This document shows positions 61 through 50,022 of a DNA stretch of 64,000 nt, in pieces (position 1 is the first letter of the stretch; each line of letters starts with the position of its first letter). The notes under the pieces are model-generated. The model searched no databases. It saw only the letters and a program-made list of their open reading frames with translations, and was not told the origin of the DNA. Location: contig JBBIUX010000004.1 of the NCBI GenBank assembly GCA_037440025.1, positions 4,290 through 68,289 on the forward strand, given 5' to 3'. The stretch is from Candidatus Fraserbacteria bacterium. Its GTDB lineage: Bacteria; Bipolaricaulota; Bipolaricaulia; RBG-16-55-9; DRXL01. The position numbers were made by a program, and so were the translations under genes.

Positions 61-1332
61 CTACGCATACAGCCCCCTCGCTCGCGCCGCCGTCGCTACG
101 CGATCTACAGCGACCATGTACGAAGCTGTCCGTAAATCTGTCCTCTCTCGCTGAGCCATCTCCCAGACGCGCTCAAAAGCGTTCACCATAAACCGCCGCA
201 GGCGCTTGTCCACCCGTTCAGGGCTCCAGAAGTAAAAAGCCCGATCTTGCACCCATTCAAAATACGAAACCGTGACTCCGCCGGCGTTGGCTAAAATATC
301 GGGCACAACCAAAATTCCTCGGTCGTACAAGATACGGTCGGCTTCGAGAGTGATCGGACCGTTGGCCAGCTCAATGATTGTCTTGGCTCTGATCTGTGAA
401 GCATTTGCTTTGGTGATCTGGTTTTCTATCGCTGCCGGGACCAAAATGTCGCACTCCAGTTCTAGAAGTTCTTGATTGGTGATGGGCTCAGTGTTCTTAA
501 ATCTCACAACTGAACCGGTCTTGCGCTCATGCTCTTTGAGCGCCACCGGCTCGATTCCATCAGGGCTATACACACCGCCTTTGGCATCGCTGATGGCGAT
601 AATCCTCGCGCCGCCTTCAGCACAGAAGCGCGCCATGTTCGAGCCGACGTTGCCAAAACCCTGAATGGCGATCCGTGCCCCCTCGAGCTTCATGTTGAGG
701 CGTTTGAGTGTCTCCAGGAGCACAAAATAGCCGCCCCGGCCGGTCGCCGTGTCGCGTCCTTCCGACCCGCCTAACACTTTGGGCTTGCCCGTGACTAGCC
801 CTGGCATGAACATGCTGTTGTGGTGCATGCTAATAGTATCAACAAACCAGGCCATCTCGCGCTCCCCGGTGAAGACATCTGGGGCGAGAATGTCTACATC
901 AGGGCCGATAATGGGCGAGATCTCTGCCGCATACCGTCGGGTGATGCGCTCCAGCTCGCCGGTGGAAAGCTCTAACGGGTTGCAGCGCACGCCGCCCTTG
1001 GCCCCGCCAAAGGGAATCTGAGCTACAGAACATTTCCAGGTCATCAAAATGGCAAGCGCTTCGACCTCTTTTAACGTAATATCGGGGTGATAGCGAATGC
1101 CGCCCTTGGTCGGCCCCAGCACCAAATGGTGCTGCACGCGAAAGCCCTCAAAATGCTGCACGCTCCCGTCGTCCATCACCACGGGGAAGACGACGATGAG
1201 CTTGCGCTTGGGGTAGCGTAACAGAGTCCGCAAGGAGTCTTCTAACTTCAGGCGGTTTGCCGCTTCATCAAAGAAGTAATGAGCTGTCTCCAACACGCCA
1301 ATCTCGGACTTGCGTTTGAGTTCCTCGGACAT
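61..1332 (-). CDS. Glutamate dehydrogenase (Glu/Leu/Phe/Val dehydrogenase family), paralog 1. True start is probably MSEELKRK at 1332. The upstream part of the listed ORF (to 1386) is read through a palindromic repeat.
   Basis: The ORF has the GPTKGGIRYHPD and GGAKGG motifs and a Rossmann NAD(P) motif (GFGNVGS). It is about 70% identical in eye-alignment to ORF 55062..56339. The N-terminal MKGGMGEGRGGGRGEV stretch is encoded by repeat copy R1. Confidence 0.88.
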   Translation of the reverse strand: MSEELKRKSEIGVLETAHYFFDEAANRLKLEDSLRTLLRYPKRKLIVVFPVVMDDGSVQHFEGFRVQHHLVLGPTKGGIRYHPDITLKEVEALAILMTWKCSVAQIPFGGAKGGVRCNPLELSTGELERITRRYAAEISPIIGPDVDILAPDVFTGEREMAWFVDTISMHHNSMFMPGLVTGKPKVLGGSEGRDTATGRGGYFVLLETLKRLNMKLEGARIAIQGFGNVGSNMARFCAEGGARIIAISDAKGGVYSPDGIEPVALKEHERKTGSVVRFKNTEPITNQELLELECDILVPAAIENQITKANASQIRAKTIIELANGPITLEADRILYDRGILVVPDILANAGGVTVSYFEWVQDRAFYFWSPERVDKRLRRFMVNAFERVWEMAQRERTDLRTASYMVAVDRVATAARARGLYA

Positions 1333-1354
1333 GGATAAAACCTCTCCTCTGCCC

Positions 1355-1440
1355 CCTCCCCGACCCTCACCCATCCCTCCCTTCAAGGGAGAGGGTGCAG
1401 GGGGAGGGTTCCCCTTCCCTTTAGAGAAAGGGACTGAGGA
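1355..1440. repeat. Palindromic GC-rich element, copy R1, in the intergenic region between lon and gdh. Made of tandem hairpins of the CCCTCCCTT..GGGAGAGGG and CCCTTCCCTTTAGAGAAAGGGA type.
   Basis: Sequence similarity to the R5 and R7 copies on the opposite strand. Hairpin-forming inverted repeats are seen directly. Confidence 0.6.
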
Positions 1441-3944: not shown

Positions 3945-4664
3945 CTAGAAGACGCGGATCTCGGCATCTCCCACAACGGGCACGGAGAAGCGCGGGGAGA
4001 AACTGGTCAGTTGGCCGCTCAGTTTGAATAGGCCGGCCGGTGTGCCGGGCGGCACAATCACCTCGTAGACAACAGTCAGTGTCTGTCCGGCCTGGAGCCG
4101 TTGGGCCCAGAGCCATTGCAGCTCGGCCTTTTTGAAAAGTGCTCCAGCGTTCTGGCTCTCGCGTGCTGTCCAGCCCGAGGGGGGGTCTTCATCGAGTCCT
4201 AGGCCGTTGATGGCTTTATTGATGCGCAAGTGGACGGTGACCCGGACCGTTTGCCCTGTGGTGACTTGGCCTCCTGGTGGCAGGGTGATCTGGCGTCGCG
4301 TGGTTACAGCTGATTCAGCAATCCTTACGATCTTGCTGATGGAGCCTGTCGCGCCGCGGTTATCTGTGACTCGTAAGTTAATGCGCCAATCGCCGGCACG
4401 ATCAAAGAGCCGGGTGGTCGTCGGGGTTGTCTTCACTTCATCGAAGCGGCCATCGCCGTTGAAATCCCACTCGTATTTGACGATGGAGCCGTCGGGGTCT
4501 TTTGAGCTTGAGGCGTCGAAGAGCACGGGTGTATTTGTATCGGGATTGGTTGGGGTTGTCCGAAAATCGGCGCGGGGCGAGGCGTTGCTTTGCGCTTCTG
4601 CTGGGGAAAGCGCCAGCATTCCCACGGCTGCCAGAAGTGACAGAGCTTTTACAAAGGTTCTCAT
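3945..4664 (-). CDS. Secreted PKD-domain protein with a signal peptide. Start set at MRTFVKAL, which has an AGGAGG RBS 7 nt upstream.
   Basis: Signal peptide MRTFVKALSLLAAVGMLALSPAEA. PKD signature VKYEWDFNGDGRFDE. The C-terminal domain carries the GLGLDED..W..FK..W..Y.V.VP pattern shared with neighbouring genes. Confidence 0.7.
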   Translation of the reverse strand: MRTFVKALSLLAAVGMLALSPAEAQSNASPRADFRTTPTNPDTNTPVLFDASSSKDPDGSIVKYEWDFNGDGRFDEVKTTPTTTRLFDRAGDWRINLRVTDNRGATGSISKIVRIAESAVTTRRQITLPPGGQVTTGQTVRVTVHLRINKAINGLGLDEDPPSGWTARESQNAGALFKKAELQWLWAQRLQAGQTLTVVYEVIVPPGTPAGLFKLSGQLTSFSPRFSVPVVGDAEIRVF

Positions 4665-4689
4665 CGCACAGACCTCCTTCTTCACTCAA

Positions 4690-4754
4690 GGCCCTCACCC
4701 CGGCTGTGCCACCCCTCTCCCGTCTAGACGGGAGAGGGGTTGGGGGTGAGGGCC
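4690..4754. repeat. Palindromic element copy R2, intergenic. Outer stem GGCCCTCACCC/GGGTGAGGGCC, inner stem CCCCTCTCCCGTC/GACGGGAGAGGGG.
   Basis: Perfect nested inverted repeats read directly from the sequence. Confidence 0.8.
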
Positions 4755-4758
4755 GGTT

Positions 4759-6648
4759 TTACGGCAGCGGCCCGAAGACCGATGCTCCCGTGAGCCAATA
4801 GGCGACCAACGTCTGCAGAGTTTTTAGGTCAATCTTGCCGAAATCCACTCCGCCAGCTTGTTTGCTGGTCACGGATTTGTCTGCCAACCAGAAGAAAGAG
4901 ACAGCAACCTGAATTTGATCAAAACTGATAGTGTTCGTATCGAGCCACAGGTTCACTCTGGGATTGGCGGCATCGCTGACGTCCATGCGGGCGAAGACCA
5001 CGGGCCACGGCAGCTTAGTATTAATAACTTTGATCTCCGTCTCTCCCGTGATGGCCATCTCAAAATTGGGCGATGCACTGCTGATATTGCCACTGAGTTT
5101 GATCACTTGGGGCCCCATATTATCAGGGAGGATCAATTCGTATTCGATGGTGCGCACCGTGCCGGCCTCCAGGGCTTCTAAGAAGACCCACAGGGCTTCT
5201 TTGATTTCGCCGGCCTCTTTAGGCTCCCGCGGGATCCCGCTGTCACCAGCGACGGCCTTGAACTGTAACCCCCTGGGGAAACGCTCCATGACGACCAGGC
5301 CGTTCACACGGTCTATAGTACGAATAGTCAGCGTCACCTTGACGCGCTCCCCAGCGATGGTCTCATCATTGGGCAGGTTGGTGTCAATCGTGCGCGTCGC
5401 GATGGCCCGGGGGGTGAAGACCCGCACGGACTTCGTTGCGCTCGCCTTCTCGCCGTCCGTGTCGGTGACGGTGAGAGTTACAGTGTAGGTCCCATCAGCG
5501 CTGTAGCGATGGATCGGGCTCTGTTCGGCCGAGCGCGCCCCGTCGCCAAAATCCCACTCCCAGGAAACGATTCCTACGTCGTCGGTCGAACGATCTATAA
5601 ACGTGACAGGAGTATTAGCCGCCGGATCGGCAGGCAAGATATCGAAATTGGCCGTCGGCGGACGGTTGCGGTCACGCGTGACCAATGGAATCGGAGCGAT
5701 CCCCGGCGTGACCAACCGACCGCGCGAGTCCAGATAACTGAAAAGAGGCTTCAGTGAAGCCGTTCCCGTTTGTGAGCCGCCGACGGTAAAGCTGGCCTCC
5801 CAGACGTCGCCGGCGAGCAGGCTCTCTAGTTCCCAGACGATGGTCGTCGAACCATCAGGGTTTTTCGTCACGCGGTTGGGGGCATTGAACGTGGCAACCC
5901 CATAATTAAGAAGAGCGGGCAACGAGAGAGTGATCTTGATCTGGCGTGCCACGGTCTTCTTTCCCAAGGCTTTGGCGATCTCTTGAGAGACGGTGTCATC
6001 GAATTTTTCAAAGAACTGCCCTTGAGTGAGCCGGGCCAGCTCGCGCAGAAGAGTTTTATCCGGGTTGCGCCCGATGGCAACAGTGAAAATCACGACACCG
6101 CTCTCAGCGGAGCGTTGGGCCTGCGCAAGCGGCGTGCGCCCGATGTTGTAACGTCCATCGCTGACCAGCACCATAGCCCAGGACGCTTCTTCACGACCAT
6201 TCAAAATCAGGGTGTCGAGGGCTTTGCCCAACCCTTCGCCGACGGCCGTCTTCCCTATGGGGCGGAGTAGCTTCAGCCCTTGGCGCACGGCCTCATGGTC
6301 GAACGTCAAGGGCACGTCCACACGGGCATCGGTGCTGAACGAGACCAGCCCGACACGATCTTGCGGGGAGAGGGCCTCAACGATGGCTGAGCCGATCTTT
6401 TGCATCTCTGGGATATTGACGGTCGCTGAACGATCAATCACGAGAAAGAGATCTGTCGGGGCGCGCTCACCTTCCGGCCCGGAAGAGAGACGCAACGTGA
6501 GCGTGGCTTCTTGGTTGACAAAGATTGCCGGTGGAGAGATGTTCACAGTGAGCTGCACGGTAGGTGAAACTACTTGAGAATGCGCTGTCAGCCATCCCAG
6601 ACAGATCAAGCTCGCTGTGAGGGTGCTCAGGCGTTTCAATCTGGTCAT
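4759..6648 (-). CDS. Secreted vWA-domain plus PKD-domain protein with a dockerin-like C-terminal module. Start at MTRLKR (GGAGG RBS). The longer listed ORF reads into repeat R3.
   Basis: Signal peptide present. vWA/MIDAS-like LFLVIDRSATV..VGLVSFSTD..LVSDGRYN. PKD signature SWEWDFGDGARS...YTVTLTVTDTDGE. C-terminal tandem segments DTNTISFDQIQVAVSFFWL and VDFGKIDLKTLQTLVAYWL. Confidence 0.75.
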   Translation of the reverse strand: MTRLKRLSTLTASLICLGWLTAHSQVVSPTVQLTVNISPPAIFVNQEATLTLRLSSGPEGERAPTDLFLVIDRSATVNIPEMQKIGSAIVEALSPQDRVGLVSFSTDARVDVPLTFDHEAVRQGLKLLRPIGKTAVGEGLGKALDTLILNGREEASWAMVLVSDGRYNIGRTPLAQAQRSAESGVVIFTVAIGRNPDKTLLRELARLTQGQFFEKFDDTVSQEIAKALGKKTVARQIKITLSLPALLNYGVATFNAPNRVTKNPDGSTTIVWELESLLAGDVWEASFTVGGSQTGTASLKPLFSYLDSRGRLVTPGIAPIPLVTRDRNRPPTANFDILPADPAANTPVTFIDRSTDDVGIVSWEWDFGDGARSAEQSPIHRYSADGTYTVTLTVTDTDGEKASATKSVRVFTPRAIATRTIDTNLPNDETIAGERVKVTLTIRTIDRVNGLVVMERFPRGLQFKAVAGDSGIPREPKEAGEIKEALWVFLEALEAGTVRTIEYELILPDNMGPQVIKLSGNISSASPNFEMAITGETEIKVINTKLPWPVVFARMDVSDAANPRVNLWLDTNTISFDQIQVAVSFFWLADKSVTSKQAGGVDFGKIDLKTLQTLVAYWLTGASVFGPLP

Positions 6649-6662
6649 ATCGTTCCTCCCTT

Positions 6663-6783
6663 GGCCCTCACCCCGCCGCACCCCTCTCCCGTCTTTACGG
6701 ACGGGAGAGGGGCCGGGGCGAAGCGTTTTGGTGCAGCATTTTTTCAGAAAGCGGTCGCACCAAAACGCTTCGGGGTGAGGGCC
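6663..6783. repeat. Palindromic element copy R3, a compound nested copy of about 120 bp with an extra internal hairpin GAAGCGTTTTGGTGC...GCACCAAAACGCTTC.
   Basis: Outer stem GGCCCTCACCCCG/CGGGGTGAGGGCC and two internal perfect stems, read directly. Confidence 0.8.
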
Positions 6784-6795
6784 TTCTCTCCCGTT

Positions 6796-8931
6796 CTACC
6801 GCGTCGCCGCGGGCAACGGCTGATCTACGGGTGTATCCGTAAGCCAATACGAGATGAGTATTTGCAACATTCTAAAATCTATAGTCTTCCCGCAGGTGCC
6901 GACAACCTCTTCGTCTTCTAACCAGAGGGCGATGGCCGTCTGGATCTGCGCAAAACTGATCTTGTTTGAGAGCGCGACGTCAATGGTGTTCTGCTCAACA
7001 TTGAGGTGCGAGATGGCCACCGGAATGTCGAGGCACTCCACGACGTTCAATAATTGATCTTTGCCAACCTCGATCTGGAAGTTGGGCGAGAAGGACTCGA
7101 TCAAGCCTTGAATCACATACTGACTGATGATCTCGTCCATGGGAACGACGACTTCATAGATGACGCTGCGGCGAGAACCGGCGGGAATCTTCTCCGTGAA
7201 GATCCACGTGTTCGCCAATTGCTTGAAGGCGGCGCTGCTGCCTTCTAAAGGCTTCACTTCCCAGCGTTCGGGCAATTTTTCCGTCAGGGCCAAGCCAAAG
7301 AGATCTTTTTCGGCATGCACTTCGACCTTCACACGGAAGATATTCCCGCCTGGGGTGCGCAAATACACTTGGAAGAACGGGAGCGGCGCTAAGATCGAGC
7401 GCAGGGCTGAACCGCTGACCGAGGTATCTTCTTCGATGGTCCGATCTACGGGCACGTTCGCCAAGTGATGGGCGACTAGTTGTTTCAGCGATTGCAGGTC
7501 GAGTGGGGCCTCGCACGTCCCCGGCACCGCAGTATCCTCTTGCCAGAAGGCGATTCCACGTTGCATTTGGTCAAACGTGACATCCTCCGGCAAGCGCAGA
7601 TTGACAGTATCCGTTGCCGTATCCAAATGTGCCAACGCGACGAGAGGGGGCAAACAGGTCACGATGGAAATTCGTGAGTAGGATTCGTTGGTCTCTCCCA
7701 AGACGGGAATCTCTTTGATGTCCGGCACGGTGCTCGACACACGCCCGACGATGTCAAAATCTTGAGGCAGCGGGCCGCCGATCAATTGATCGGTCTTAGG
7801 GATGGTCACATCGTAGACGATGCGGCGGGTCTCGCCGCTGCGCACGATCGTGGGAAAGACCCATTGGGTTTGGGCGACTTTGAACGTTGCGCCGGCGCTG
7901 TCAATGGGGGTGACCTCCCAGTTCGCCGGTAGGTCTTCGTCCAAGCCAAGGCCGCTCATGGAAGTTCTCACAGTAATCGTCACGGTCACTCTAAAGGTCG
8001 TCCCTAGGGCAGCATGAGTCGTCGTGACCACGCGCCGGGCGAAAGCCACTTCTTTTTCGACGGTGATCGTTTTCGTGATCTGCGCGATGGCGCCCTTATC
8101 GTCGGTGACGCGCAGGGTGACTTTCACTTCGCCGATCTGGGTGAACGTGTGCTGCACTGTTGGTTTATCCGTAGAGATTTCGAAAATGTTGTCTGCATTA
8201 AAATCCCATTCGTACTTGACGATCTTGCCGTCGGCGACCGTGCTGGCACGAGCATCAAAAGTCACCGGCACGTTGATGCTCACCACTGATGGGGAGAACG
8301 TAAAGTCTGCTTTCGGGGGCGCTCGGCGGAAGGCGCTCAGCACTAAGGGCTCGACGGGGCTGGGCAGCTGAAATCTCTCGGGATTGACGGGATTACCGCT
8401 GAGCACCTGCCAGCCGTCAATGCCTCGGATAAATGTCGGGGTTATGGTGATCTCGAACTCATCGGGCAGCCCACTGATGACGACTCCGTCGGCGCGCTCG
8501 GCCAGCCAGCGCCAGGTCATCGTGGCTGTCGGCGGGGTGAACTCATACGTATCTGCCGGGTCGTCGCGCAAGGTAATTTGCGCTGTCGGGGGGAGACCGT
8601 CGAAGCGCAAGGTCGCCTCGCCGCCAGCAGGGTTGCCCGGCTTACTTAAGATAATAACTAAGCTCAGATCACGGGTGTTTTGATCTCGATAGAGAAAGAC
8701 CAGCGCCTGGTTGTCTATTTCTAAGCCGGTGTTCGGTTGATCGTTGGCGAAGCGATAGAACTCCACGGCCGATCCCGGTTGGGTCAGCGGGGTGATCGGC
8801 GTAGAAAACGCTCCTTGACGCGCGAGGAAGAAAGATGGCGTTTGCTCAGAAACTACCCCTTGGCCTGATCCTGTTACAGCGATCAATGCCAGCACCAAGA
8901 GCCCAGAGAGAACTTGCCGAATGACACGCAT
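6796..8931 (-). CDS. Secreted 711-aa PKD-domain protein with two 'GLGLDED' domains and two dockerin-like modules, one internal and one C-terminal.
   Basis: Signal peptide MRVIRQVLSGLLVLALIAVTGSG. PKD signature KYEWDFNADNIF...VKVTLRVTDDKGA. Repeated GLGLDEDLPANWEV.. and GLALTEKLPERWEV.. domains. Module copies ..ISFAQIQTAIALWL..KTIDFRMLQILISYWL and VTFDQMQRGIAFW..LDLQSLKQLVAHHL. Confidence 0.7.
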   Translation of the reverse strand: MRVIRQVLSGLLVLALIAVTGSGQGVVSEQTPSFFLARQGAFSTPITPLTQPGSAVEFYRFANDQPNTGLEIDNQALVFLYRDQNTRDLSLVIILSKPGNPAGGEATLRFDGLPPTAQITLRDDPADTYEFTPPTATMTWRWLAERADGVVISGLPDEFEITITPTFIRGIDGWQVLSGNPVNPERFQLPSPVEPLVLSAFRRAPPKADFTFSPSVVSINVPVTFDARASTVADGKIVKYEWDFNADNIFEISTDKPTVQHTFTQIGEVKVTLRVTDDKGAIAQITKTITVEKEVAFARRVVTTTHAALGTTFRVTVTITVRTSMSGLGLDEDLPANWEVTPIDSAGATFKVAQTQWVFPTIVRSGETRRIVYDVTIPKTDQLIGGPLPQDFDIVGRVSSTVPDIKEIPVLGETNESYSRISIVTCLPPLVALAHLDTATDTVNLRLPEDVTFDQMQRGIAFWQEDTAVPGTCEAPLDLQSLKQLVAHHLANVPVDRTIEEDTSVSGSALRSILAPLPFFQVYLRTPGGNIFRVKVEVHAEKDLFGLALTEKLPERWEVKPLEGSSAAFKQLANTWIFTEKIPAGSRRSVIYEVVVPMDEIISQYVIQGLIESFSPNFQIEVGKDQLLNVVECLDIPVAISHLNVEQNTIDVALSNKISFAQIQTAIALWLEDEEVVGTCGKTIDFRMLQILISYWLTDTPVDQPLPAATR

Positions 8932-9542
8932 CGCGGCCTCCTTCGTAACTTCTGGTCTCAGTATAGCGGACTATTTCCCCTGAGACAGTGATTCAAATTA
9001 CCCACTGCGCGCACTTCCCCTTAGCTTGAGCATAGCACAGCTTTGGGCCAAAGGCAAGCGGGCGTGATAGCCATTACAGTCTAAGAAAATTTAGCGACGC
9101 GTTCGAGGCCTGGGGCCAAAATCTGACTGGGCGTTTGTCTGGGGAATGGGTGCGCTCTGTCCGCTTTTATTTGACAAGCCTTGGACGAGGAGACGCTCTT
9201 CTCGATGTTGGAATGGGTTGGTGGTCCGTCTCTAGTCTCCCCTGGCAGACAGTCGCGTGAGGGAGCACCGCCATTTGAGTACATGGGAGGGCTACAAGCC
9301 ATTGATTCTGGACGGACCGGCTGGGCTGGGCTCGATCTTTCTCCGGGAGAGTATATTGCTTTGTGTTTTGTGCCCGATCCGGCGTCTGGGAAACCGCATA
9401 TCGAGCTGGGCATGGTTGCAAGCTTTCGGGTGAGGTGACCCTAAGAAGCGTTGAAGGGCAATGCTGGAACTGAAGGTTCGGCCTGTGATACCAGAGCGGT
9501 GGTCCGATCTCGAAGAACTCTTCGGAGAGCGTGGGGCGTGAG

Positions 9543-10175
9543 CTACATGCGTGCCGCAGGACAACGAGCGTCTGGAGCATCTGAGTCTGATGGCAGCGCT
9601 GTGATGATCTGGGGGCACGCGCCCAACAGGGCACACTCCGACTCGATGAAGTCCTTCAATTCAGTTGCTAGCTTCGTATAGAATTCCAGCTGGCTCTCTC
9701 GTATGAGCGTCTCGGCGAAGAGTTTGACCCAGCGCCCCAAGTGGGCTTCTAAGAACTTCTTCTGCGCGTCGCGACAGATCTCGGCTTGCTCTAAAAGATT
9801 ATTCTGAAGAGCCAGCGCTTCTTTGTACGCTAAAACGCTCATGAACTCCAGCTCCAAAGCCAGATGGTCCGGGCGCTCGTTCACGGAGAGTTCTAGCCCG
9901 AACGCCCTATAGAACCCCATAATATCTGCAAGCGTCGGCCCCTGCGAGACGGCGCGATTTCTGTCGTACTCGACTTCGTAGATCGGGCAGAGCACAGTCG
10001 TGCGATGGCTGAAAAGACGGTCGTATTCTAACCCCTCCCCGACACGGTCTTTCGGCCGCCAAAAGCCCCGCGCCAGCCCTGCATAGCGGCGGCTGCGCTC
10101 AAGGGCCAACTCGAAGTCGTTCACACTTCTCACCCGATCTCCGGCTCGCGAGGCCGTGGATGATAGAGCATCCAA
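9543..10175 (-). CDS. TorD/NarJ/DmsD-family redox-enzyme maturation chaperone, the delta subunit of the type II DMSO reductase family operon.
   Basis: PDHLALELEFMSVLAYKE motif typical of the TorD family. Position is immediately downstream of the alpha-beta-gamma genes. It overlaps the gamma gene. Confidence 0.6.
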   Translation of the reverse strand: MDALSSTASRAGDRVRSVNDFELALERSRRYAGLARGFWRPKDRVGEGLEYDRLFSHRTTVLCPIYEVEYDRNRAVSQGPTLADIMGFYRAFGLELSVNERPDHLALELEFMSVLAYKEALALQNNLLEQAEICRDAQKKFLEAHLGRWVKLFAETLIRESQLEFYTKLATELKDFIESECALLGACPQIITALPSDSDAPDARCPAARM

Positions 10176-11122
10176 ACCAAAATCGCGCCGAAGAGCAGCC
10201 CCAGTACCCCGATCACAACTGCCACCCAGCCGGGCACCCCGATCACGCGCACGCTCTCCTGCGCCGTCGCCGGAGATGGCGTTCCTGTTGCTCCTGCGGG
10301 CAATGCTTCGAGCGTCAGCTCATGCCAATTGAGCGAGACGGACTTACTCGCGCCGCGCTCCCCACTGGAGCCGTCCCACACAGCGAAATTCACAAAGCCC
10401 TTCTGTCCGGCCTCGAAGCTCGCATCACCCCTCAGCCCCGTGTGCAGCGCCCGCACGAAGACGACCCTCCAGCGTCCGTTCTCCCACATCCCCTTCCCCA
10501 AGACATGCTGCAGCTCTTGGTGCGTGAGCGTACCGAAGCCCTGAGCTATTAAGTTTTCGACAGGGGTCTGATGGTCTCGTTGCGAGCGCCAGTTGCCCAC
10601 ATCTCGCCCGACGTAAATCCCATAGGGGACTTCACTAGCATAGGGCGGATAGGTGCGATCAACGTCGGCGAGGCCGCCCTCGTCTATGTCGCGCTGCCAC
10701 GCCGCCTGCCATTGCCAGATATTCACAGCGTTCTGAGCATCCCCCATGAATGGGCTGGGATTGGCCTTCGGGTCAACGGGGAACTGCACAGCGACAGCGT
10801 CGCTGAATCTATCTGTTTGAGCAAGCTCTTGGTCTTGAATAGGATCAGCCCATTCTACAAGAAACGCGATCAGTCTGCCGTTGTGCAGGGCTCGCACGTG
10901 GAGCTCTTTGATTGCGCCGCCGCCGAAGGGCTTTGTCATCTGTTGCGGGCTGAGAGCAATCGTCACGGGCCGGACTTCGTTCCAAATCTGAGCCGTCGGG
11001 TCCGGGAGGAGCTCTTGATCAGTAAACTTCACCGTGAGCTTAACGGCCTGAGCTTGGGCCATCAAGCTTGGTAGAACAACCAGCAAGACTATCCATACTC
11101 TGCGCATGAGAGGCTCCTTCAT
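10130..11122 (-). CDS. Heme-b gamma subunit of a type II DMSO reductase family enzyme (EbdC/NxrC/DdhC-like EB_dh domain), with a signal peptide and a C-terminal transmembrane anchor.
   Basis: Signal peptide MRRVWIVLLVVLPSLMAQAQA. EB_dh-like motifs GAIKELHVRALHNG..AFLVEWAD..FSDAVAVQFP..NIWQW. C-terminal hydrophobic helix VPGWVAVVIGVLGLLFGAILVWML. Confidence 0.7.
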   Translation of the reverse strand: MKEPLMRRVWIVLLVVLPSLMAQAQAVKLTVKFTDQELLPDPTAQIWNEVRPVTIALSPQQMTKPFGGGAIKELHVRALHNGRLIAFLVEWADPIQDQELAQTDRFSDAVAVQFPVDPKANPSPFMGDAQNAVNIWQWQAAWQRDIDEGGLADVDRTYPPYASEVPYGIYVGRDVGNWRSQRDHQTPVENLIAQGFGTLTHQELQHVLGKGMWENGRWRVVFVRALHTGLRGDASFEAGQKGFVNFAVWDGSSGERGASKSVSLNWHELTLEALPAGATGTPSPATAQESVRVIGVPGWVAVVIGVLGLLFGAILVWMLYHPRPREPEIG

Positions 11123-12261
11123 GGCGTGTTGTGTCGCACGGCTTGATGCTCTCGGTCTTCGAAGGGCCGGATGTAGATAGGCTCTTGAATGGGCACCCGG
11201 ACGATCTCTGCACCCTTGGCATCGTAGCCGAACGCATAGCCATCGGCGACTTTGAATCGTTCAATCCAGCGCGGCGTCGCGCCAAAAAGCGTCAGACAGC
11301 CCAACAGCTGCTCGTCGTCTTTGAGATTTTTATAGAGATTGATGGCGTGCTCGACGTTGGGGCTGAACATCTGTTTCAAATAATCTAAGGGGACATGCAC
11401 CGGCGGGATATAGTAAATATTGGGCTCCAACCCTGTCTGGGGATAGAGAGGCAACGCGATCTTTTTGATGTGCACCAGAAAGTCTATGGGCTTTTCGGGA
11501 TCAGCTTTCTCCGGCGGGCTGATCCAGCCGTTCAGTCTTATTTTCCCAATGCACGTCGTGACACACTGGGTTTGGAAGCCCTGCTCGACTAACGGGTAGC
11601 ACCCGATGCACTTCTCGCTCACGCGCGTCACGGCGTTATAAAGAACTTTTTTATACGGGCACGCGCGCATACACTCCCGATACCCTCGGCAGCGCGATTG
11701 GTCTACAAGCACAACGCCGTCTTCTTCGCGTTTATAGATCGCTTTGCGCGGACACGCTGCTAAGCACGCCGGGTAGGTGCAATGATTGCAAATTCGGGCG
11801 AGATAGAAGCACCAAATTTTATGGGGCAGACTGAAAAAGTCGCCCTTCTCGACGGTGCCAGCGGGCTCGTCCTCTCCGATGTTGGGATGGGCCCAATCTA
11901 AATCATCGGGGAGATACCCTTGCACGGTTTGGCCAGTCGGAGCAGCCTCGAAGATTGTCTTGCCCTGATATGTTTGTCCGGCCCATTTGTTCACGCCGAG
12001 CAGCGAAAGAATTTTTACATCCCAGCCCAAGGGATAGAAGCCATAGGGCTTGGTCTCAACGTTGTTCCAGAACATATACTCTTGGCCGCGACCGCTTGTC
12101 CACGTATGCTTACACGCCATGGTGCACGTCTGACACGCAATGCACTTATTGGTATCAAAGACAGCCGCGAACTGTCTCTTGGGTCGAGACTCTTCGTAGG
12201 GGTACTCCATCTGACGGTTGATCTGCCAGTTTGAGACTTTCGACATGCTCCCTCCTGTCAC
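11119..12261 (-). CDS. Fe-S beta subunit (NarH/NxrB/EbdB-like, four-cluster ferredoxin) of a type II DMSO reductase family enzyme.
   Basis: Cysteine motifs CIACQTCTMACK, CNHCTYPACLAACP, CRGYRECMRACPY and CIGCYP..CVTTC. The 4-bp overlaps with neighbouring genes indicate an operon. Confidence 0.85.
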   Translation of the reverse strand: MTGGSMSKVSNWQINRQMEYPYEESRPKRQFAAVFDTNKCIACQTCTMACKHTWTSGRGQEYMFWNNVETKPYGFYPLGWDVKILSLLGVNKWAGQTYQGKTIFEAAPTGQTVQGYLPDDLDWAHPNIGEDEPAGTVEKGDFFSLPHKIWCFYLARICNHCTYPACLAACPRKAIYKREEDGVVLVDQSRCRGYRECMRACPYKKVLYNAVTRVSEKCIGCYPLVEQGFQTQCVTTCIGKIRLNGWISPPEKADPEKPIDFLVHIKKIALPLYPQTGLEPNIYYIPPVHVPLDYLKQMFSPNVEHAINLYKNLKDDEQLLGCLTLFGATPRWIERFKVADGYAFGYDAKGAEIVRVPIQEPIYIRPFEDREHQAVRHNTP

Positions 12262-12265
12262 TATT

Positions 12266-15200
12266 TTATTGTTCGGCTTCGATGAACCCGCCTGCCAAGT
12301 ATTTTTTCATTTCTTCGTTTTCGTAGGTGGGCCGATAGCCCAACCGCGCCGGGCGCCAGAGGCTCTTCAAGTCGGCTCCGCCCGGCTCGGCCTTGGTGAT
12401 CTTGACAAAGGACTCTTTGGGCGCACCCACCGGACAGTGAATATCAGGCGCGAAGCCCTGCCCGATGCTCTGTCCAAAAACGTCTTTTCTGACTAACGAG
12501 TCTGTCATCAGGGGAGGGCGCAGCCAGGCGCGGGTGCAGCTCTGGTGGCCGCCGTAGCGAAACATCGCTTGGTAATTTGTCTCTGGGTTTTTGGCGAGAT
12601 GATCGGGCCGGGTCTCGTGAGCTTTCACAGTCCCATGCGTCGCTTGGTACATGTTGAACCACATTCGGACGACGCCGCGCGGCGTACCGTTATAATAGCG
12701 CGCTCTGCCCATCAGCCGCGCGATCTTATAGTCGGGATCGCCGGGCTTGGCCCCGCGATATGGACGGTCTTCTGGGTCGGCGTCAATCCAGATATAGTCA
12801 CCATCTTCAATGCCGAGTTCTTTGGCGTCTTGGGGGTTTATATCAGCGTAGACTTCGCCGACCCACGGGCTGCGCTTGTCTCTTCTGTAAATATCCCCGA
12901 AGGGCCCGAAATAGACGGCTAAGACGTCCAAATCTACCGGGGTCGTGTGTGCCCCATGACGATACTTGGGTGTGATGAAGATAAATTTGAGCCCGTCTTT
13001 GGCGCGCGGGTGTTGTGATCGCACGACTTCGTCAGGGGTCTTGATGACGTTGCGCACCTGGCGTGTCTCAGGACTCAAATCATCGCGCTTGAGCCCATAC
13101 TGTTCGGGAGGTGTGGGCTTGAGCGCCTCGTGTTTTTGTGGGCCGACGATCACATTGGGCTCGTGCGGCGTGGCGTCCACCGGCTCGCGATAGACCGGGA
13201 GATTCTCTCCGTGTTCAATAAATTCGTCCTCTTCGCGATAGAATTCTAATCGTCCGGTCTTGGTGTACCACGGTTTGGACTCTTGCGTCTGCTCCCAGCC
13301 CACGATCTTCGGATACGTTCTTAACAGCTTGAGCATCGGTGTGCCCTTCTTGGCTTGCTCTTCGAGCTCTGTGAACTGATACCCGCGCAGGGAGCTGCTC
13401 GCGTCGCAGATTCTCTGAAGATACACATCAACGCGATTCTCGCGCACGAAGTGCCAATAGTCTTTGAATCGCTGATCGCCTGTCAGTTCAGCGAGCTTTT
13501 CAGCGACCCCCGCGTAGGTCTCGATGTCGCTGCGGGTATCGAAAATTCTGGGCAAGGGCGTGCGGGGAAAGACCTGCACGAACGGATTGGTCACCGAGCC
13601 GCACATGTCAGGGTATTTCAGCTCACCCCACGAATCTACCCCAAAGACGACATCGGCGTACTCACACGACATCGTCCACCACCATTCGTTCACAATAATG
13701 GCTTCGATCTTAGGCAGCGTGTTGTGAATGACATCGTAGCCCCACTTGGAGTTGCCCAAGAGTGAATTACTATTGGCGAACCACATGAATTTAGTAGGTG
13801 TGGGGATATGAGTCTTGCCGGTGAAGAGCTTTTTGCCCACTCTCAGAGGCCGGTCCCCGTAGTTATAGTAATGGGCCGACTCGGCCTTGGCGTACGATTT
13901 TGTCTTGGCGGGCTTGGTCTGGTCCAGCTCGGTATTGAACGGGTCTTCGGCGACATATTGGGGCAGGCCGTTGAAGAGCGCCACTCTGTAATTCCCGGCG
14001 TAGCTGCCGGGGCTGCCCCCGAAGTGCCCAATATTTTTCGTGAGAGCTGCAATTAAGAAAAGCGCACGGTCTTTCAGATCAGCGTTAAAGAAATGGTTGG
14101 GCCCCATGCCGTGTGACAGGAGGGTCGAGGCTTTGTTCGCGGCAATCTGGCGGGCCAGATTGACGATGGCTTCGGATGGAGCCCAACTCACTTCGGAGAC
14201 TTTTTGAGGGGTGAACTCTTTCAAATACTCTTTGATGAGATCGAAGACGGGTCGAACTTTGATCTCTTTGCCATCGAGCATCTTGACGGTGAGTGTGCCT
14301 TCTAGGGCTAGATCGAGCCCGGTGAAAAATTCCCCGACGTGGTCGCGGGTAACGACCGCGGGTTTGTTCTTAACGGCGTCCCATACGACAAAATCTCCCC
14401 ACTCGGCGCGGGCTTTCTCGGAGATATACTGGACACCTTGAGTGACATTGGGGTTAGGCTTTTCATCGAACTTGAGCACCTTGACGTAGTTGCTGAGCTC
14501 GGCGGGCTGGTAGTCTTTGATGATCTCAGAGGCCCGCAGGAGTTTGAGCGTGTCCATGCGCACCAGCAGGGGCAAGTCCGTAAATGTCTTGACATACTCT
14601 TCGTCATAGAGTTTCTCGTTGATAATGAAAGAAGCGACACCGAGGGCGAGGGCGGCATCGGTCCCCGGCCGAATGATAATGACTTCGTCGGCTTTGTTGG
14701 AAGTGGCTTGGTACTCGGTCGCAATAGTGATGACTTTCGCGCCGCGCTGGCGGGCTTCGGTCAGCCAATGGGCGTCGGGCATCTTTGTGCAGATCCAGTT
14801 CATGCCCCAGAGCGTGATCAATTTGGCGTTCTCCGCGGTGAAGAGATCGAAGTCGACGGTCTGCTGGCCGGTGACCATCGGGTGTCCTGGGGGCAGGTCC
14901 GTGTGCCAGCTATAGTTGTCCCAGACACGGCCACCGAGCGCTTGCTTGGGGCTGACATTCCGAATATGCTGATCGAGCAAGGCGAGCATATTAGCGAATC
15001 TGGCCAGCCCGTAGATGCGCGTCGCACCCAAGAAGGGCATCCCGCCACGCGCTTTCACTGTTTGGGTGCCGGCTTCGTGTGTCGCTTCGATCATGGCCGG
15101 GTCGTAATTCTGCGCTTGCAGGCGTTTGGTCCCTTCGGGGCCGGAATACGTCTGAGCGATATTGAGTAGGGCTTGGGCGACCAGTCCATAAGCTTCATCA

Positions 15201-15718
15201 AACGAGAGCTTCAGCCAAGTATCTTGGCCGCGATTGAAGTACTCTTTCGGGGGTGCGCCCGTGCGTGGGTCTCGTGGGAAGCCCGCTTGCACCCAATCTG
15301 AAAAACCCTTGCGCACCCAGACGCCCTTCACCCGGCGATCCCCATAAAAACGTCGTCCGAGAGCGAGTCCCTTTTGGCAGCAGCGCGGCTCCCACCGCGC
15401 TGAGCTCTGGTTTCCATAAAGATCGCGTGCTTCGCTGTAGCCGTACGTCGGCCCGATGCGCACCACTACCCCGTTGCGCACATACGCCCTCAACAGACAG
15501 TTATGGGTGTCATTGGGAGCGCACAGAAACGGAAAAGAACTATCATAGCGAAACTGATCTCTATAGATCTTCTCCCAGTCGCGATCGGGATAGAACTGTA
15601 AGGGGTTTTGAATATCGGGAACGAACTGGAACCCTGACAGGCCCAAGGCGTCAGCAGCTAGAGCAACTCCGGTGACTGTTACGGTGGCTTTCAGAAAGCG
15701 TCGCCGCGAGACCTTCAT
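12266..15718 (-). CDS. Molybdopterin catalytic alpha subunit of a type II DMSO reductase family enzyme. It is Tat-exported and has a NarG/NxrA-like size.
   Basis: Twin-arginine signal [26 protein letters not shown]. Length is 1150 aa, in the NxrA/NarG size class and larger than EbdA/PcrA/SerA. Molybdopterin oxidoreductase architecture. It is followed by beta, gamma and delta genes. Confidence 0.8.
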
Positions 15719-15877
15719 GCTCGCCCTCCCAATATCGAGAAGTCTCTAATGTTGGTCACAGTATCGGGGATAGCCGCTGTCTGGGTCAATGAGTTTTATC
15801 AGCGAGAAACATGAGATTCGTCAGGTTGGAGGTTTGTCCCTGGTGAGCTTCGCTTATATAATTGGGCTCGCTCTGCT

Positions 15878-16723
15878 ATGAAATTTTTCAAGAACTCAGA
15901 CTTTCGGCTCTTGGCTGAACAACCAGAGTGCTTCATCCCATCCCTCTCTTCAAAGACAAACTTAAAACTCGCGTCGGCAAAAAATCTGGCCATCGTCGAG
16001 ATCGCCGGGCGCGATTCTATTGCCGCGGCGATCCAAGCGCTCACAGAGCGACCGATTGACGCCCTCTTGCCGACGCTCGCTTATAACGGTGCCCACTATG
16101 GCAGTTTAGAATCTGTTGAGCTTGCCCTCGATCTGTTGGTGCGCCGGGTCGGACCTGAGCGCGTGCTCGATCTGGCAATCATTGGCTCGCCCCAGTTTTG
16201 GCAGGCGCTCACCGTGCGCTTCGCTGATTCTCTCACGGAACGATTCGGCTTCTACACGCCCTACGTCGCCTGTCACTTGTATATTCACGCCGTCAGGGTT
16301 CCATTAGCAAAGCGTCTGCACTGTAAGCTCATAATCTCTGGAGAGCGCGAGTCCCACAACGGGACAATCAAGCTCAACCAGACTCCTTTAGTATTAGATC
16401 GCTATGCCCAGTTGACGGCGCACTTTGGGGTCGAGCTGTGGCAGCCACTGAGAAAAGTGCAATCAGGGGACGAGATCGAAAGACTTTTGGACGAGCCGTG
16501 GCCCGCCGGGCAGAGACAGTTGCACTGTATGCTGTCGGGGAATTATAAAAACCCTGACGGCTCGGTGGACTTTGGCCCCGGGCAGCGCTTCAGCGACGAA
16601 AAATCCGCGAGATTTTTAGATCACTATGCTCTGCCCTTGGCCCGGGTTTGTCTTGAGAAGATCATGCACGGAGAGAGCGTCAACTACGAAGCTGAAGCCG
16701 TGAAAATCTTAGAGCGATCATGA
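15878..16723 (+). CDS. Hypothetical protein, possibly a degenerate PP-loop ATPase-like fold (MJ0570/Dph6-like).
   Basis: IAGRDSIAAA resembles the SGGKDS PP-loop but has substitutions. A later segment LIISGERESHNG..PL resembles the family. There is a 4-bp overlap with the downstream ApgM-like gene. A TATAAT box lies 16-21 bp upstream of the ATG. Confidence 0.35.
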   Translation: MKFFKNSDFRLLAEQPECFIPSLSSKTNLKLASAKNLAIVEIAGRDSIAAAIQALTERPIDALLPTLAYNGAHYGSLESVELALDLLVRRVGPERVLDLAIIGSPQFWQALTVRFADSLTERFGFYTPYVACHLYIHAVRVPLAKRLHCKLIISGERESHNGTIKLNQTPLVLDRYAQLTAHFGVELWQPLRKVQSGDEIERLLDEPWPAGQRQLHCMLSGNYKNPDGSVDFGPGQRFSDEKSARFLDHYALPLARVCLEKIMHGESVNYEAEAVKILERS

Positions 16724-19309: not shown

Positions 19310-20479
19310 TCACAGCACGCGCCGCTTGAATTCAACCCGCCGGATAAGCCCGCTCTCCAGGGCTTCACGGATACAACCCGGCCCGTAGGTCAAGTAAATC
19401 GTTGGGAAGGCGATAAACTCTTCATTGCGCCTAAAAGTCTTCAATAAAACATGCCCGCCCGTGCTCAAGATGAGCGTGTCACTTCTCTCTGGGATGGCGA
19501 GCCATTCGGCTTGAGCATCCAGGTGCTTGGGAGCGTACTGCTTCCACACTCCTCCCCCAAGATGTGGGATCTGCGGAGCCGTTGTCGTCGTGAGAATGAC
19601 CAGGGGCATGGTGGGGATCACTTCAAAGCGCCTCATGGCTTCAAAGACCCCTTCAGTCGGAATGCGCTTCTCCTGAGTTTCAGAGAACTGAAAGATAAAT
19701 TGAGAACCTTCGAAGCGCACGTGGCGACGCTTCCTCTGGGCGTCAATACCCTCAATCATAAAAGTATCTTTGATATATTTCTCTTCAGGCACGGGCATCT
19801 CCCAAAAGGGAAAGCCCTCACGGTACAGTGCCTCCAGGACGTCAGCAGTCTCTTTCTGTAAAGCCTGCGAGTAGGCAACTTCAGGGATGACGTCTATACC
19901 CAGTAATCCCAGACAGTCCTGACGAACCCTCAGGAGCCGTTCGCTCACTTTCCCCGGGCCAGAATGCTTTTGAAAGATCGCGTCCACCTGGTCGAACCGC
20001 GCCCGAAACGCTTCGCGCTTCTCTTCGGGAGCGCTCTTGACTCGGTTTTGCCCATCTTTCAAAAATACGGCGTGATCATAGAAAAGACCATCTTGTAAGC
20101 TGGGAATGATATCCGGCTGCATAACTTTGGGGTTCACGATGCCAAACTGCACTGTATAGGCTTTCGGGGTGTCAGTTCTGGGAATATAGTTATCATATGC
20201 ACAATTGATGACTTGGTCGCGCCGCAGCCCGGCTTGGTCTACGATTTTAGGCAGAACATAATTCCCAAAGACTTCATCGAAGGGAAGATTTGGAGTCAGG
20301 TGTGAGAAAGTACAGATGAGCTCCGTCGCGCCATACAGCTCTTTGAGATGGGGAAAGCGCCGCGGAAGATCTCGACGTTCGCGCAGCAAGCGTGCGTTCT
20401 CGCGAATGATCTCCCGGACGTCAATACAATCTACGACATCCTCGACAGCCTGTGGACATCCCATAGTTGGATCGCACAA
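19310..20479 (-). CDS. Conserved hypothetical 389-aa cytoplasmic protein of unknown function. The start may be TTG at 20479 or ATG at 20464.
   Basis: Long ORF with coding-like composition and no recognisable motifs. It lies immediately upstream of the TSUP exporter on the same strand. Confidence 0.5.
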   Translation of the reverse strand: MCDPTMGCPQAVEDVVDCIDVREIIRENARLLRERRDLPRRFPHLKELYGATELICTFSHLTPNLPFDEVFGNYVLPKIVDQAGLRRDQVINCAYDNYIPRTDTPKAYTVQFGIVNPKVMQPDIIPSLQDGLFYDHAVFLKDGQNRVKSAPEEKREAFRARFDQVDAIFQKHSGPGKVSERLLRVRQDCLGLLGIDVIPEVAYSQALQKETADVLEALYREGFPFWEMPVPEEKYIKDTFMIEGIDAQRKRRHVRFEGSQFIFQFSETQEKRIPTEGVFEAMRRFEVIPTMPLVILTTTTAPQIPHLGGGVWKQYAPKHLDAQAEWLAIPERSDTLILSTGGHVLLKTFRRNEEFIAFPTIYLTYGPGCIREALESGLIRRVEFKRRVL

Positions 20480-26598: not shown

Positions 26599-26628
26599 TT
26601 GAGAACCCCGGCGCTTTCTCTGTATAAT
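26599..26628 (+). promoter_or_regulatory. Sigma70-like promoter TTGAGA-18nt-TATAAT upstream of the resA-like gene.
   Basis: Read directly. An AGGAG RBS and the ATG at 26653 follow. Confidence 0.5.
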
Positions 26629-26652
26629 TTCCCTCACAGGAGCAAAAGAAAG

Positions 26653-27303
26653 ATGCTGAAAAAGCTATTGCTCGGCTTGATCGTTCTCGTGGGGTTGGCT
26701 TGGACTGGAATTATCACGTATTCGTACTTTTTCTATAGCCCTGGCCCGCAGAGCCCCGGCGCTCTGCGCCGCGAAGACCAGATCAACGAGTTCGTCCTGA
26801 AATTCAAGCGAGGGGTTTTTATTGACAAGAACGCTGAGCTTCACTTCGACGAAGAGAGGCCAGATCTGGGCTTTCGCGCTCCCGATTTTGAGCTTGAAGA
26901 CCTCAACGGACAGAAGGTCCAATTGAGTGACCTGCGCGGCAAGCCCGTGCTCTTAAATTTTTGGGCCAGTTGGTGCCCGCCCTGCCGCAAGGAGATGCCT
27001 GACCTCCAAGAGTTCGCAAGTCAATACAGTGAAAAAATTCACGTCATCGGCATCAACTGGAACGACCAGCAGACGACGGTGCAGGCGTTTCTCGATCAGT
27101 ACAGAGTCACGTACACGAATCTGCTTGACACCAACGGCAAAGTCTTTGTGCGCTACGAACTGACGGGGCTGCCTACGAGCTTTTTCATTGATGAAGATGG
27201 CATTATCCGAGGCAAGTGGCTCGGCGCGATGAGCGTGGCCGATATGGTTGCGGCCTTCCAGAAGACGACTCGCGCTCTAGATACAGCTCCAGAAAGCCAT
27301 TAG
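26653..27303 (+). CDS. Membrane-anchored thiol:disulfide oxidoreductase (TlpA/ResA family thioredoxin) for cytochrome c maturation.
   Basis: N-terminal transmembrane helix. WASWCPPCRKEMP thioredoxin active site. It is followed by ccsB/ccsA homologs. Confidence 0.8.
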   Translation: MLKKLLLGLIVLVGLAWTGIITYSYFFYSPGPQSPGALRREDQINEFVLKFKRGVFIDKNAELHFDEERPDLGFRAPDFELEDLNGQKVQLSDLRGKPVLLNFWASWCPPCRKEMPDLQEFASQYSEKIHVIGINWNDQQTTVQAFLDQYRVTYTNLLDTNGKVFVRYELTGLPTSFFIDEDGIIRGKWLGAMSVADMVAAFQKTTRALDTAPESH

Positions 27304-27307
27304 ACAC

Positions 27308-49699: not shown

Positions 49700-50022
49700 A
49701 GCGGTATCAAGAATTACCCATCGGAGGGGTCGTCCCCGGAGGCGCAACGCCCCAATTAGTCCAGACCGGAGGCTGGCGGTCTGGGAAGAAACCCCTCTTC
49801 GATGAAAAACTCTGTGTGAACTGCCTGCTGTGCTGGGTTCATTGTCCCGAAGCAACGATTATCGTCGAACGGGCTCAGATGCGCGGCTTCAGCTACGATC
49901 ACTGTAAGGGATGTGGTATCTGTTCGCAAGCCTGTCCGACGGGCGCCATCGCGATGGTCGCAGAAGCGGCGGACGAACCCCAGATACCGGAACAGAAAGT
50001 GGGGGAGGAAGTATGCGCGTAG
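49696..50022 (+). CDS. porD: 2-oxoacid:ferredoxin oxidoreductase delta subunit (2x[4Fe-4S] ferredoxin).
   Basis: CVNCLLCWVHCPE and CKGCGICSQACP motifs. Confidence 0.8.
   Translation: MKRYQELPIGGVVPGGATPQLVQTGGWRSGKKPLFDEKLCVNCLLCWVHCPEATIIVERAQMRGFSYDHCKGCGICSQACPTGAIAMVAEAADEPQIPEQKVGEEVCA

Follow-up and report, generated by a model that had tools for sequence, protein, structure and literature searches.

The stretch of DNA analyzed here (the window: 64,000 nucleotides of contig JBBIUX010000004.1 from Candidatus Fraserbacteria bacterium, class Bipolaricaulia) carries, at positions 9543 to 15718, four co-directional open reading frames (ORFs) on the minus strand, which the ORF list and its translations place in the order alpha-beta-gamma-delta. 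From the subunit sequences, we argue strongly that this operon encodes a membrane-anchored, periplasm-facing nitrate/nitrite oxidoreductase. [quoted passage not shown] The four ORFs, their domain matches, and the Tat motif confirmed the complex and its export, while the idea of a novel substrate was not supported, as discussed below.

Subunits, export signals, and cofactor ligands

The alpha gene (12266 to 15718, minus strand) encodes the catalytic subunit, a 1,150-amino-acid protein of the type that binds molybdenum-bis(molybdopterin guanine dinucleotide) (Mo-bisMGD) in nitrite oxidoreductase (NXR) and periplasmic nitrate reductase (pNAR). Its start is the first in-frame ATG downstream of a stop codon and is preceded, at a distance of 5 nt, by the Shine-Dalgarno sequence GGGAGGG (15724 to 15730, minus strand). 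The twin-arginine signal peptide (15656 to 15718, minus strand), with a predicted A-L-A cleavage site, scores just under the cut-off of TIGR01409. Its motif aligns with that of Kuenenia NxrA from residue 1 and recurs in 69 of 78 family alpha subunits, the exceptions being truncated sequences or RK variants; the family loci are the 80 closest of 242 matches in one genome-contig scan. Since the first in-frame ATG, the Shine-Dalgarno sequence, and the family-wide motif agree, the signal is genuine and not an artifact of a wrongly chosen start codon.

The beta gene (11119 to 12246, minus strand) encodes the Fe-S subunit, 375 amino acids counted from the ATG at 12246, which is most likely the start (AGGAGGG lies upstream) instead of the GTG at 12261. 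The gamma gene (10130 to 11122, minus strand) encodes an EB_dh heme-b subunit of 330 amino acids, or of 325 if translation starts at the second ATG at 11107, as it may, given an AAGGAG 6 nt upstream. The delta gene (9543 to 10133, minus strand) encodes a TorD/NarJ-type assembly chaperone of 196 amino acids counted from the GTG at 10133; this codon, which overlaps the gamma stop codon (GTGA), is most likely the start instead of the TTG at 10175. Gene calls in a syntenic locus, L085, lie near these revised starts (beta, 375; gamma, 323; delta, 194 amino acids). A weak sigma-70-like site is found upstream of alpha at 15760 to 15789; in the promoter and terminator scan, such sites were no commoner than in shuffled sequence.

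All four subunits matched families of the expected kinds: alpha matched Molybdopterin (Pfam) and DMSO_red_II_alp (NCBIfam TIGR03479); beta, Fer4_11 (Pfam) and DMSO_red_II_bet (TIGR03478); gamma, EB_dh (PF09459, 4e-35) and DMSO_red_II_gam (TIGR03477); and delta, Nitrate_red_del (PF02613, 7e-20) and DMSO_red_II_cha (TIGR03482), the delta matches bearing out the TorD-like chaperone that had been predicted to follow gamma. The NCBIfam scores all fall below the curated cut-offs (318 versus 985 bits for TIGR03479, 265 versus 481 for TIGR03478, 156 versus 170 for TIGR03477, and 80 versus 152 for TIGR03482). Because these models were plausibly built around enzymes of the Ebd, Ser, Clr, and Pcr types, such scores plausibly argue against membership in those subgroups and not against the wider type II DMSO reductase family.

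Without a signal peptide of its own, beta is presumably co-exported with alpha. It contains four groups of Cys residues, one of three residues and the others of four each, which is consistent with three [4Fe-4S] clusters and one [3Fe-4S] cluster; all four groups align with those of Kuenenia NxrB. Gamma consists of an N-terminal Sec-type signal, the EB_dh domain, a linker, and a single C-terminal hydrophobic helix (GWVAVVIGVLGLLFGAILVWMLY; residues 298 to 320, 10163 to 10231, minus strand) followed by a short basic tail, in agreement with the heme-b subunit with a C-terminal membrane anchor that had been proposed from the initial reading. Such an anchor is present in only 18 of 68 gamma sequences, mostly from Bipolaricaulia, Chloroflexota, metagenome-assembled genomes (MAGs) of the Nitrospirota/Thermodesulfovibrionales type, and a Thermoplasmata MAG, which corresponds roughly to the subclade of the window; elsewhere in the family, Methanoperedens included, gamma is soluble. 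The alpha-beta-gamma-delta set itself is kept in nearly all 80 loci, with delta sometimes first or between beta and gamma.

Inspection of the active-site residues showed that alpha keeps the Mo-ligand Asp274 and the substrate Asn69, and that its FS0 cluster is of the 3Cys/1Asp type (C66-x3-D70-x3-C74 ... C114). In the Kuenenia NXR structure, the corresponding residues are the Mo ligand Asp275, the substrate-coordinating Asn70, and the FS0 ligands C67, D71, C75, and C115 (Chicano et al. 2021, PMC8387239). Residues C66, N69, D70, C74, C114, and D274 are each the sole residue seen across the 77 to 78 family sequences covering the column, Asp274 being invariant in 78 of 78 and matching also the Asp of NarG, pNarG, and ClrA. 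The predicted axial heme ligands of gamma, Met126 and Lys260, are likewise invariant (68 of 68 homologs) and have their counterparts in Met155 and Lys305 of Kuenenia NXR-C (Chicano et al. 2021, PMC8387239). In contrast, FS0 of Escherichia coli NarG, Haloferax pNarG, and Ideonella ClrA is of the His/Cys type, and the position of the substrate Asn, which is common to NarG and Kuenenia NxrA, is occupied by Gly in ClrA, as our alignment also shows, and by Ile in EbdA (PMC8387239). The operon has the type II DMSO reductase features of an Asp Mo ligand, FS0 with a four-cluster beta subunit, and an EB_dh gamma subunit with a TorD/NarJ chaperone. The 3Cys/1Asp FS0 is common to the Nitrospira/Nitrospina/anammox NXR and its sister lineage and so does not discriminate between them.

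Among solved structures, the best match of alpha, beta, and gamma was in each case the respective subunit of Kuenenia stuttgartiensis NXR (NXR-A, -B, and -C; PDB 7B04). Alpha aligned over residues 1 to 1148 with 956 bits (E = 2.7e-286), followed at a distance by PcrA (195 bits), EbdA (154 bits), and NarG (120 bits); beta scored 414 bits and gamma 136 bits. The length of 1,150 versus 1,148 amino acids and the margin of this match over PcrA uphold the earlier claim of an alpha subunit that is NxrA-like in size and not Ebd/Pcr/Ser/Clr-like. Identity is 41 to 43% to Kuenenia NxrA, 26% to E. coli NarG, and 25 to 28% to the PcrA, EbdA, and ClrA types. Full-length NxrA homology, together with the retained cofactor and substrate residues, argues strongly for nitrate/nitrite as the substrate pair.

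Phylogenetic placement and relatives within Bipolaricaulota

At least 242 species-level genomes matched alpha in the scan. We aligned 82 alpha subunits, the Kuenenia sequence having been reassembled from printed alignments, and built a neighbor-joining tree (82 sequences, 1,143 columns, Kimura distances, 100 bootstraps). The window alpha groups with five Bipolaricaulia loci (100%), next to which stand two Anaerolineae (98%), and the window plus 77 family loci form one clade (99%) with two Methanoperedens loci inside it. The sister of this clade is Kuenenia NxrA (100%), and ClrA, pNarG, and NarG fall outside. The NXR-like character noted initially stands, with the refinement that the alpha subunit lies not inside the Nitrospira/Nitrospina/anammox clade but in its sister lineage, with bootstraps of 99 to 100%. 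Confident clustering in a described clade, which had been named beforehand as an outcome that would speak against the initial annotation, is largely what we found, given the 99% clade shared with the Methanoperedens nitrate reductase.

Comparison of 50%-identity cluster representatives gave the same division: a representative of the window type shares 57% identity with the window and 39% with Kuenenia, those of the Kuenenia type share 55 to 59% with Kuenenia and 40 to 41% with the window, and one SAR202 cluster is intermediate (46% and 44%, respectively). Kuenenia NxrA itself is about 60% identical to the Nitrospira/Nitrospina enzymes and about 40% to those of Nitrotoga/Hydrogenobaculum (Chicano et al., PMC8387239). 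The sister clade described by Kitzinger et al. in 2018 unites Ca. Nitrotoga fabula's NXR with putative nitrate reductases (NARs) of known nitrate reducers and includes the characterized periplasmic membrane-bound NAR of Hydrogenobacter thermophilus (PMC6050957). Methanoperedens enzymes of the window's type serve nitrate-dependent methane oxidation (PMC7327174), and Methanoperedens and Thermogutta, both nitrate reducers, have been placed with Nitrotoga in a broad NXR cluster (PMC10732223). With Methanoperedens as the sampled link, we equate the window clade, as far as sequence comparison goes, with the Nitrotoga NXR/Hydrogenobacter pNAR clade of Kitzinger et al. Over a block of 58 N-terminal residues, identity comes to about 67% with Nitrotoga and about 52% with Kuenenia, by a hand count on a supplementary alignment partly damaged by optical character recognition. 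No cultured nitrite oxidizer appeared among the best 80 of the 242 genome matches, and the search of 50% representatives with cluster look-up returned no named nitrite-oxidizer sequence.

Some cultured organisms do carry complete alpha-beta-gamma-delta operons with alpha subunits 57 to 61% identical to that of the window, namely, Bdellovibrio bacteriovorus strain Bd5 (chromosome, L044) and Thioalkalivibrio (L074 and L075); these may be tractable models for the direction of the enzyme. Separately, plasmid 2 of Natronococcus occultus SP4 (L084, 114978 to 118354) carries an unannotated, 51%-identical NXR-like alpha, found as two tblastn pieces and adjoining an Fe-S subunit and a TorD-like chaperone, which is possibly a pseudogene or a gene absent from the PLSDB table.

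NCBI already contains a protein with 100% identity to the alpha subunit (P0001). Within the phylum, the alpha subunit is 84 to 93% identical to proteins of Ca. Bipolaricaulota/Acetothermia MAGs and 90% identical to BAL57377.1 and BAL58893.1, which bear the name [quoted passage not shown] Orthologs have been annotated in the phylum since 2012, when Takami et al. listed a nitrate reductase encoded by four genes (OP3C043-46) among the candidate systems for electron acceptors in Ca. Acetothermum autotrophicum, and type I Acetothermia are reported to respire nitrate by Nar and Nrf (Colman et al. 2022). Enzyme type, lineage, and occurrence in the phylum are thus already in the literature and GenBank, and the operon carries little weight as a discovery. 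The evidence does correct the pipeline labels "nitrate reductase alpha subunit," "perchlorate reductase," and "molybdopterin oxidoreductase."

The locus L085 (GCA_900175145.1) is syntenic with window positions 1 to 26000 at 85 to 90% nucleotide identity. Its enlarged intergenic region upstream of alpha contains, at 9730 to 9848, a piece of 119 nt that matches window alpha codons ~505 to 544 with 96.6% identity; as the orthologous genes are only 86% identical, this piece is probably an inter-strain assembly chimera. Over 39 window proteins, the IVYWREL fraction is 0.422, which, by a formula that reportedly goes back to Zeldovich et al. in 2007, points to optimal growth near 60°C.

Electron transfer and physiological direction

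We propose that the delta chaperone assists Mo-bisMGD loading of alpha, which would then be exported in the folded state by Tat with beta piggy-backing on it. Gamma would be exported by Sec, bind one high-potential Met/Lys-ligated heme b, and, by means of its single C-terminal helix, hold the complex on the outer side of the cytoplasmic membrane. The resulting electron wire would run between the gamma heme b, the four Fe-S clusters of beta, FS0, and Mo. We infer that the active site faces the periplasm, which would make a nitrate/nitrite transporter unnecessary. The translocase gene required for the export of alpha and beta, tatC, lies outside the operon at 33666 to 34547 (minus strand), 17.9 kb from the alpha start, as the initial annotation had it (18 kb).

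As the operon contains no quinol-oxidizing subunit, the redox partner would have to be encoded elsewhere and might, as the data weakly suggest, be a c-type cytochrome or a Rieske/cytochrome b (bc-type) complex. Family matches to a ResA-like thioredoxin, ResB, and CcsA (System II cytochrome c maturation; 26599 to 29862, plus strand), also outside the operon, indicate that the organism makes c-type cytochromes, which are thus candidate partners.

Elsewhere in the family, genes for a Rieske protein, cytochrome b, and a 7- to 10-heme cytochrome c immediately precede the operon, in the same orientation, in 13 of 80 loci (L019, L020, L025, L032, L038, L040, L041, L043, L045, L047, L051, L052, and L054), about 4 kb upstream of alpha. 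We read this arrangement as that of a reductase fed by quinol, of which haloarchaeal pNar is another case. These 13 loci also resemble a conserved quinol:NXR/NAR supercluster, spread across Planctomycetota, Acidimicrobiia, Deltaproteobacteria-type, and other MAGs. Members of the Nitrospirota subclade have two small monoheme c ORFs instead of the Rieske/cytochrome b module, and no adjacent partner genes were found in the Bipolaricaulia and Chloroflexota loci.

We favor with moderate confidence the view that the enzyme works in respiratory nitrate reduction, facing the periplasm and most likely converting nitrate to nitrite as an electron sink. Nitrate reduction is preferred because of the published reconstructions of relatives, the mostly anaerobic tree neighbors, and the quinol modules found in synteny with the operon in other parts of the family. 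Takami et al. (2012) and Colman et al. (2022) read the orthologs as a respiratory nitrate reductase beside Nuo, Nrf, bc-type, and heme-copper oxidase genes. In full, the reading is that of an NXR-like (pNAR) periplasmic nitrate/nitrite oxidoreductase of probably thermophilic Bipolaricaulia that is most likely run towards nitrate reduction, and we consider it a reasonably probable one.

Several points weigh against this reading. Catalytic direction cannot be read from sequence, and Kuenenia NXR catalyzes both reactions (PMC8387239). The published sister clade holds a genuine nitrite oxidizer, Nitrotoga (PMC6050957), and our tree, which is without full-length Nitrotoga, Hydrogenobacter, Nitrospira, and Nitrospina sequences, has Kuenenia as the sole representative of the Nitrospira/Nitrospina/anammox clade. 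The Nrf, bc complex, and oxidase genes credited to this organism are borrowed from papers on its relatives, and what has been published on the phylum consists of inferences from genomes. Finally, no redox partner, nitrite reductase, or regulator adjoins the operon in the window, in the Bipolaricaulia loci L003 to L005, or in L085. The flanks in L003 to L005 are unrelated housekeeping genes, and the remainder of the 64-kb window contains no respiratory partner genes.

The same enzyme may be mainly oxidative, in which case nitrite would be converted to nitrate at the outer face, with a high-potential cytochrome c and a terminal oxidase receiving the electrons by way of the gamma heme b; a thermophile could profit from this for energy conservation or for detoxification. 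NXR enzymes are bidirectional (PMC8387239), a periplasmic active site is the energetically favorable orientation for nitrite oxidation, and Kitzinger et al. argued that members of the sister clade other than the Nitrotoga NXR could oxidize nitrite given suitable carriers (PMC6050957). Ca. Acetothermum has cytochrome c oxidase, Rieske/cytochrome b, and cytochrome c (Takami et al. 2012). Nitrite oxidation at about 70°C, with no canonical nitrite oxidizer identified, is described in a study on the habitat in which Acetothermia were first found (PMC5877337), and comparable activity was seen at 75°C in Icelandic enrichments (PMC6050957); the growth optimum suggested by the window proteins also lies in the thermophilic range.

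However, published reconstructions depict Bipolaricaulota as Wood-Ljungdahl acetogens or fermenters with facultative nitrate or O2 respiration (Takami 2012, Colman 2022), and the part of the habitat study covered here does not list Acetothermia among the populations maintained in nitrifying reactors at 65 to 70°C (PMC5877337). Accessory genes conserved around nxr in Nitrospira, Nitrospina, and anammox bacteria, namely, alternative NxrC, mono- and diheme cytochromes c, cupredoxins, and a cytochrome bd-like oxidase, are absent from the 64-kb window. Outside the phylum, the nearest relatives in the subclade are Anaerolineae, Dehalococcoidia, and Thermodesulfovibrionales-type MAGs, and such organisms are mostly anaerobes. 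On balance, we judge mainly oxidative use unlikely, and it is more doubtful still that Bipolaricaulia with an anchored NXR-type enzyme are among the nitrite oxidizers of geothermal systems at 60 to 75°C. The remaining interest lies in which physiological direction this widespread lineage uses, above all in thermophiles, where it touches on the nitrite oxidizers above ~65°C. Oxidative use by Bipolaricaulia of such geothermal systems, if true, would add a nitrite-oxidizing phylum and raise the upper temperature limit of nitrite oxidation.

Very improbable, in our estimation, is an oxidoreductase that resembles NXR and acts on another substrate, whether chlorate, perchlorate, selenate, dimethyl sulfide, a hydrocarbon, or something new. 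Nar/NXR-type enzymes commonly reduce chlorate too, the NCBIfam subfamily matches all lie below cut-off, and the identity of 41 to 43% is to a single structurally characterized relative. Against these points, the PcrA, EbdA, and ClrA types score 5 to 6 times lower than NxrA, the substrate-coordinating Asn is kept, and lineage members of known phenotype are nitrate reducers or nitrite oxidizers (PMC7327174, PMC10732223, PMC6050957). The window also contains no chlorite dismutase or hydrocarbon-pathway gene; in the Ideonella clr locus, cld is adjacent. The novel substrate proposed initially is not supported, in view of full-length NxrA homology, the retained Asn, Asp, and FS0 ligands, clustering with a nitrate lineage, and the 90%-identical ortholog annotated in GenBank. 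We likewise rejected the Ebd/Pcr/Clr/Ser type as the family of this enzyme, given the low structure scores, the ~25% identity, and the retained Asn that ClrA and EbdA lack.

A canonical, cytoplasm-facing NarGHJI miscalled through a wrong start codon would suit the Joint Genome Institute's automated annotation, which names many homologs "nitrate reductase alpha subunit," but is hardly credible and is refuted by the sequence: the Tat signal rests on a first in-frame ATG with a strong Shine-Dalgarno sequence and a family-wide RR motif, no diheme NarI is encoded, gamma being a Sec-exported EB_dh protein, FS0 is of the Asp and not the His type, and identity to E. coli NarG is low. The initial exclusion of canonical NarG was therefore correct.

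Several neighboring genes were noted in passing. An 85-amino-acid ORF (9181 to 9438, plus strand) lies in the 610-nt gap at 8932 to 9542, convergent on the operon, and its C terminus, GEYIALCFVPDPASGKPHIELGMVASFRVR, resembles the C..H..M loop of type 1 copper proteins; Pfam gives only a faint Copper-bind match (E = 0.26). Its closest relative, in L001 (6560 to 6990, minus strand), is longer and frameshifted, with an upstream "ELHH." Cupredoxins are conserved near nxr in nitrite oxidizers and anammox bacteria, but for lack of a significant family match and because it is absent from the syntenic L085, we rejected the ORF as a demonstrable partner gene of the operon; it is possibly a decaying cupredoxin-like gene. 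Four large secreted proteins with PKD/von Willebrand A domains, probably located at the cell surface, are encoded at 3945 to 8931 and 37236 to 39530 (minus strand); three of the genes are directly downstream of the operon, an arrangement kept in L085. Two paralogous 2-oxoacid:ferredoxin oxidoreductase gene sets (49118 to 52267 and 52427 to 55038, plus strand) and two glutamate/leucine-type dehydrogenase genes (61 to 1386, minus strand, and 55062 to 56339, plus strand) fit a ferredoxin-based metabolism using amino acids or 2-oxoacids. Two conserved ORFs match no Pfam or NCBIfam family, one of 281 amino acids (15878 to 16723, plus strand), which is divergent from alpha and has a 281-amino-acid counterpart at the matching position and orientation in L085, and one of 389 amino acids (19310 to 20479, minus strand). 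Scans of the window for tRNA genes and Rfam families gave no matches.

Comparison with known systems

The EbdABCD, PcrAB, ClrABDC, and Ser/Ddh enzymes share the overall subunit plan of the window operon, with an EB_dh gamma subunit that is soluble or anchored; they differ in their shorter alpha subunits (~900 to 980 amino acids) as well as in the low identity and substrate position discussed above. The pNarGH of Haloferax mediterranei likewise has a Tat-exported NarG, an EB_dh-type heme-b subunit, and a TorD-like chaperone and is fed by a Rieske/cytochrome b module. Nevertheless, haloarchaeal pNar was rejected as the family of the window enzyme, as it is only 28% identical, has a His-type FS0 and an alpha subunit of 984 amino acids, and falls in a different clade.

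Kuenenia NXR-ABC is closer. Its alpha, beta, and gamma subunits align end to end with those of the window, and the cofactor ligands are identical (Asp to Mo, the substrate Asn, 3Cys/1Asp FS0, Met/Lys heme b). However, Kuenenia beta contains three insertions absent from the window beta (410 versus 375 amino acids), and NXR-C is soluble, the complex forming NXR-T-dependent tubules in the anammoxosome, whereas the window gamma is anchored.

The lineage of Nitrotoga, Hydrogenobacter, and Methanoperedens shares with the window a Tat-exported alpha, a Sec-exported EB_dh gamma, a signal-less beta, a TorD-like chaperone, and the Asp-type FS0, and the Methanoperedens nitrate reductase is 61% identical in alpha. 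Here, too, the gamma subunits of Nitrotoga (PMC6050957) and Methanoperedens lack the transmembrane helix found at the C terminus of the window gamma, and the multiheme cytochrome genes adjacent to the Methanoperedens loci are missing at the window operon.

The closest systems lie within the phylum. OP3C043-46 of Ca. Acetothermum autotrophicum has the same four-gene layout, and the locus of a type I Acetothermia MAG from Oman (L005) encodes alpha, beta, gamma, and delta subunits with 84, 87, 69, and 60% identity, respectively, including the C-terminal anchor of gamma. These relatives are different species, and the genes flanking their operons differ from those of the window except in the syntenic L085; the DMSO reductase cluster that adjoins the Ca. 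Acetothermum genes according to Takami et al. has no counterpart in the window. In conclusion, the sequence comparisons identify the window enzyme as a nitrate/nitrite oxidoreductase that faces outward, is tethered to the membrane, and belongs to the NXR sister lineage, adding one more member to a widespread lineage that has already been described.

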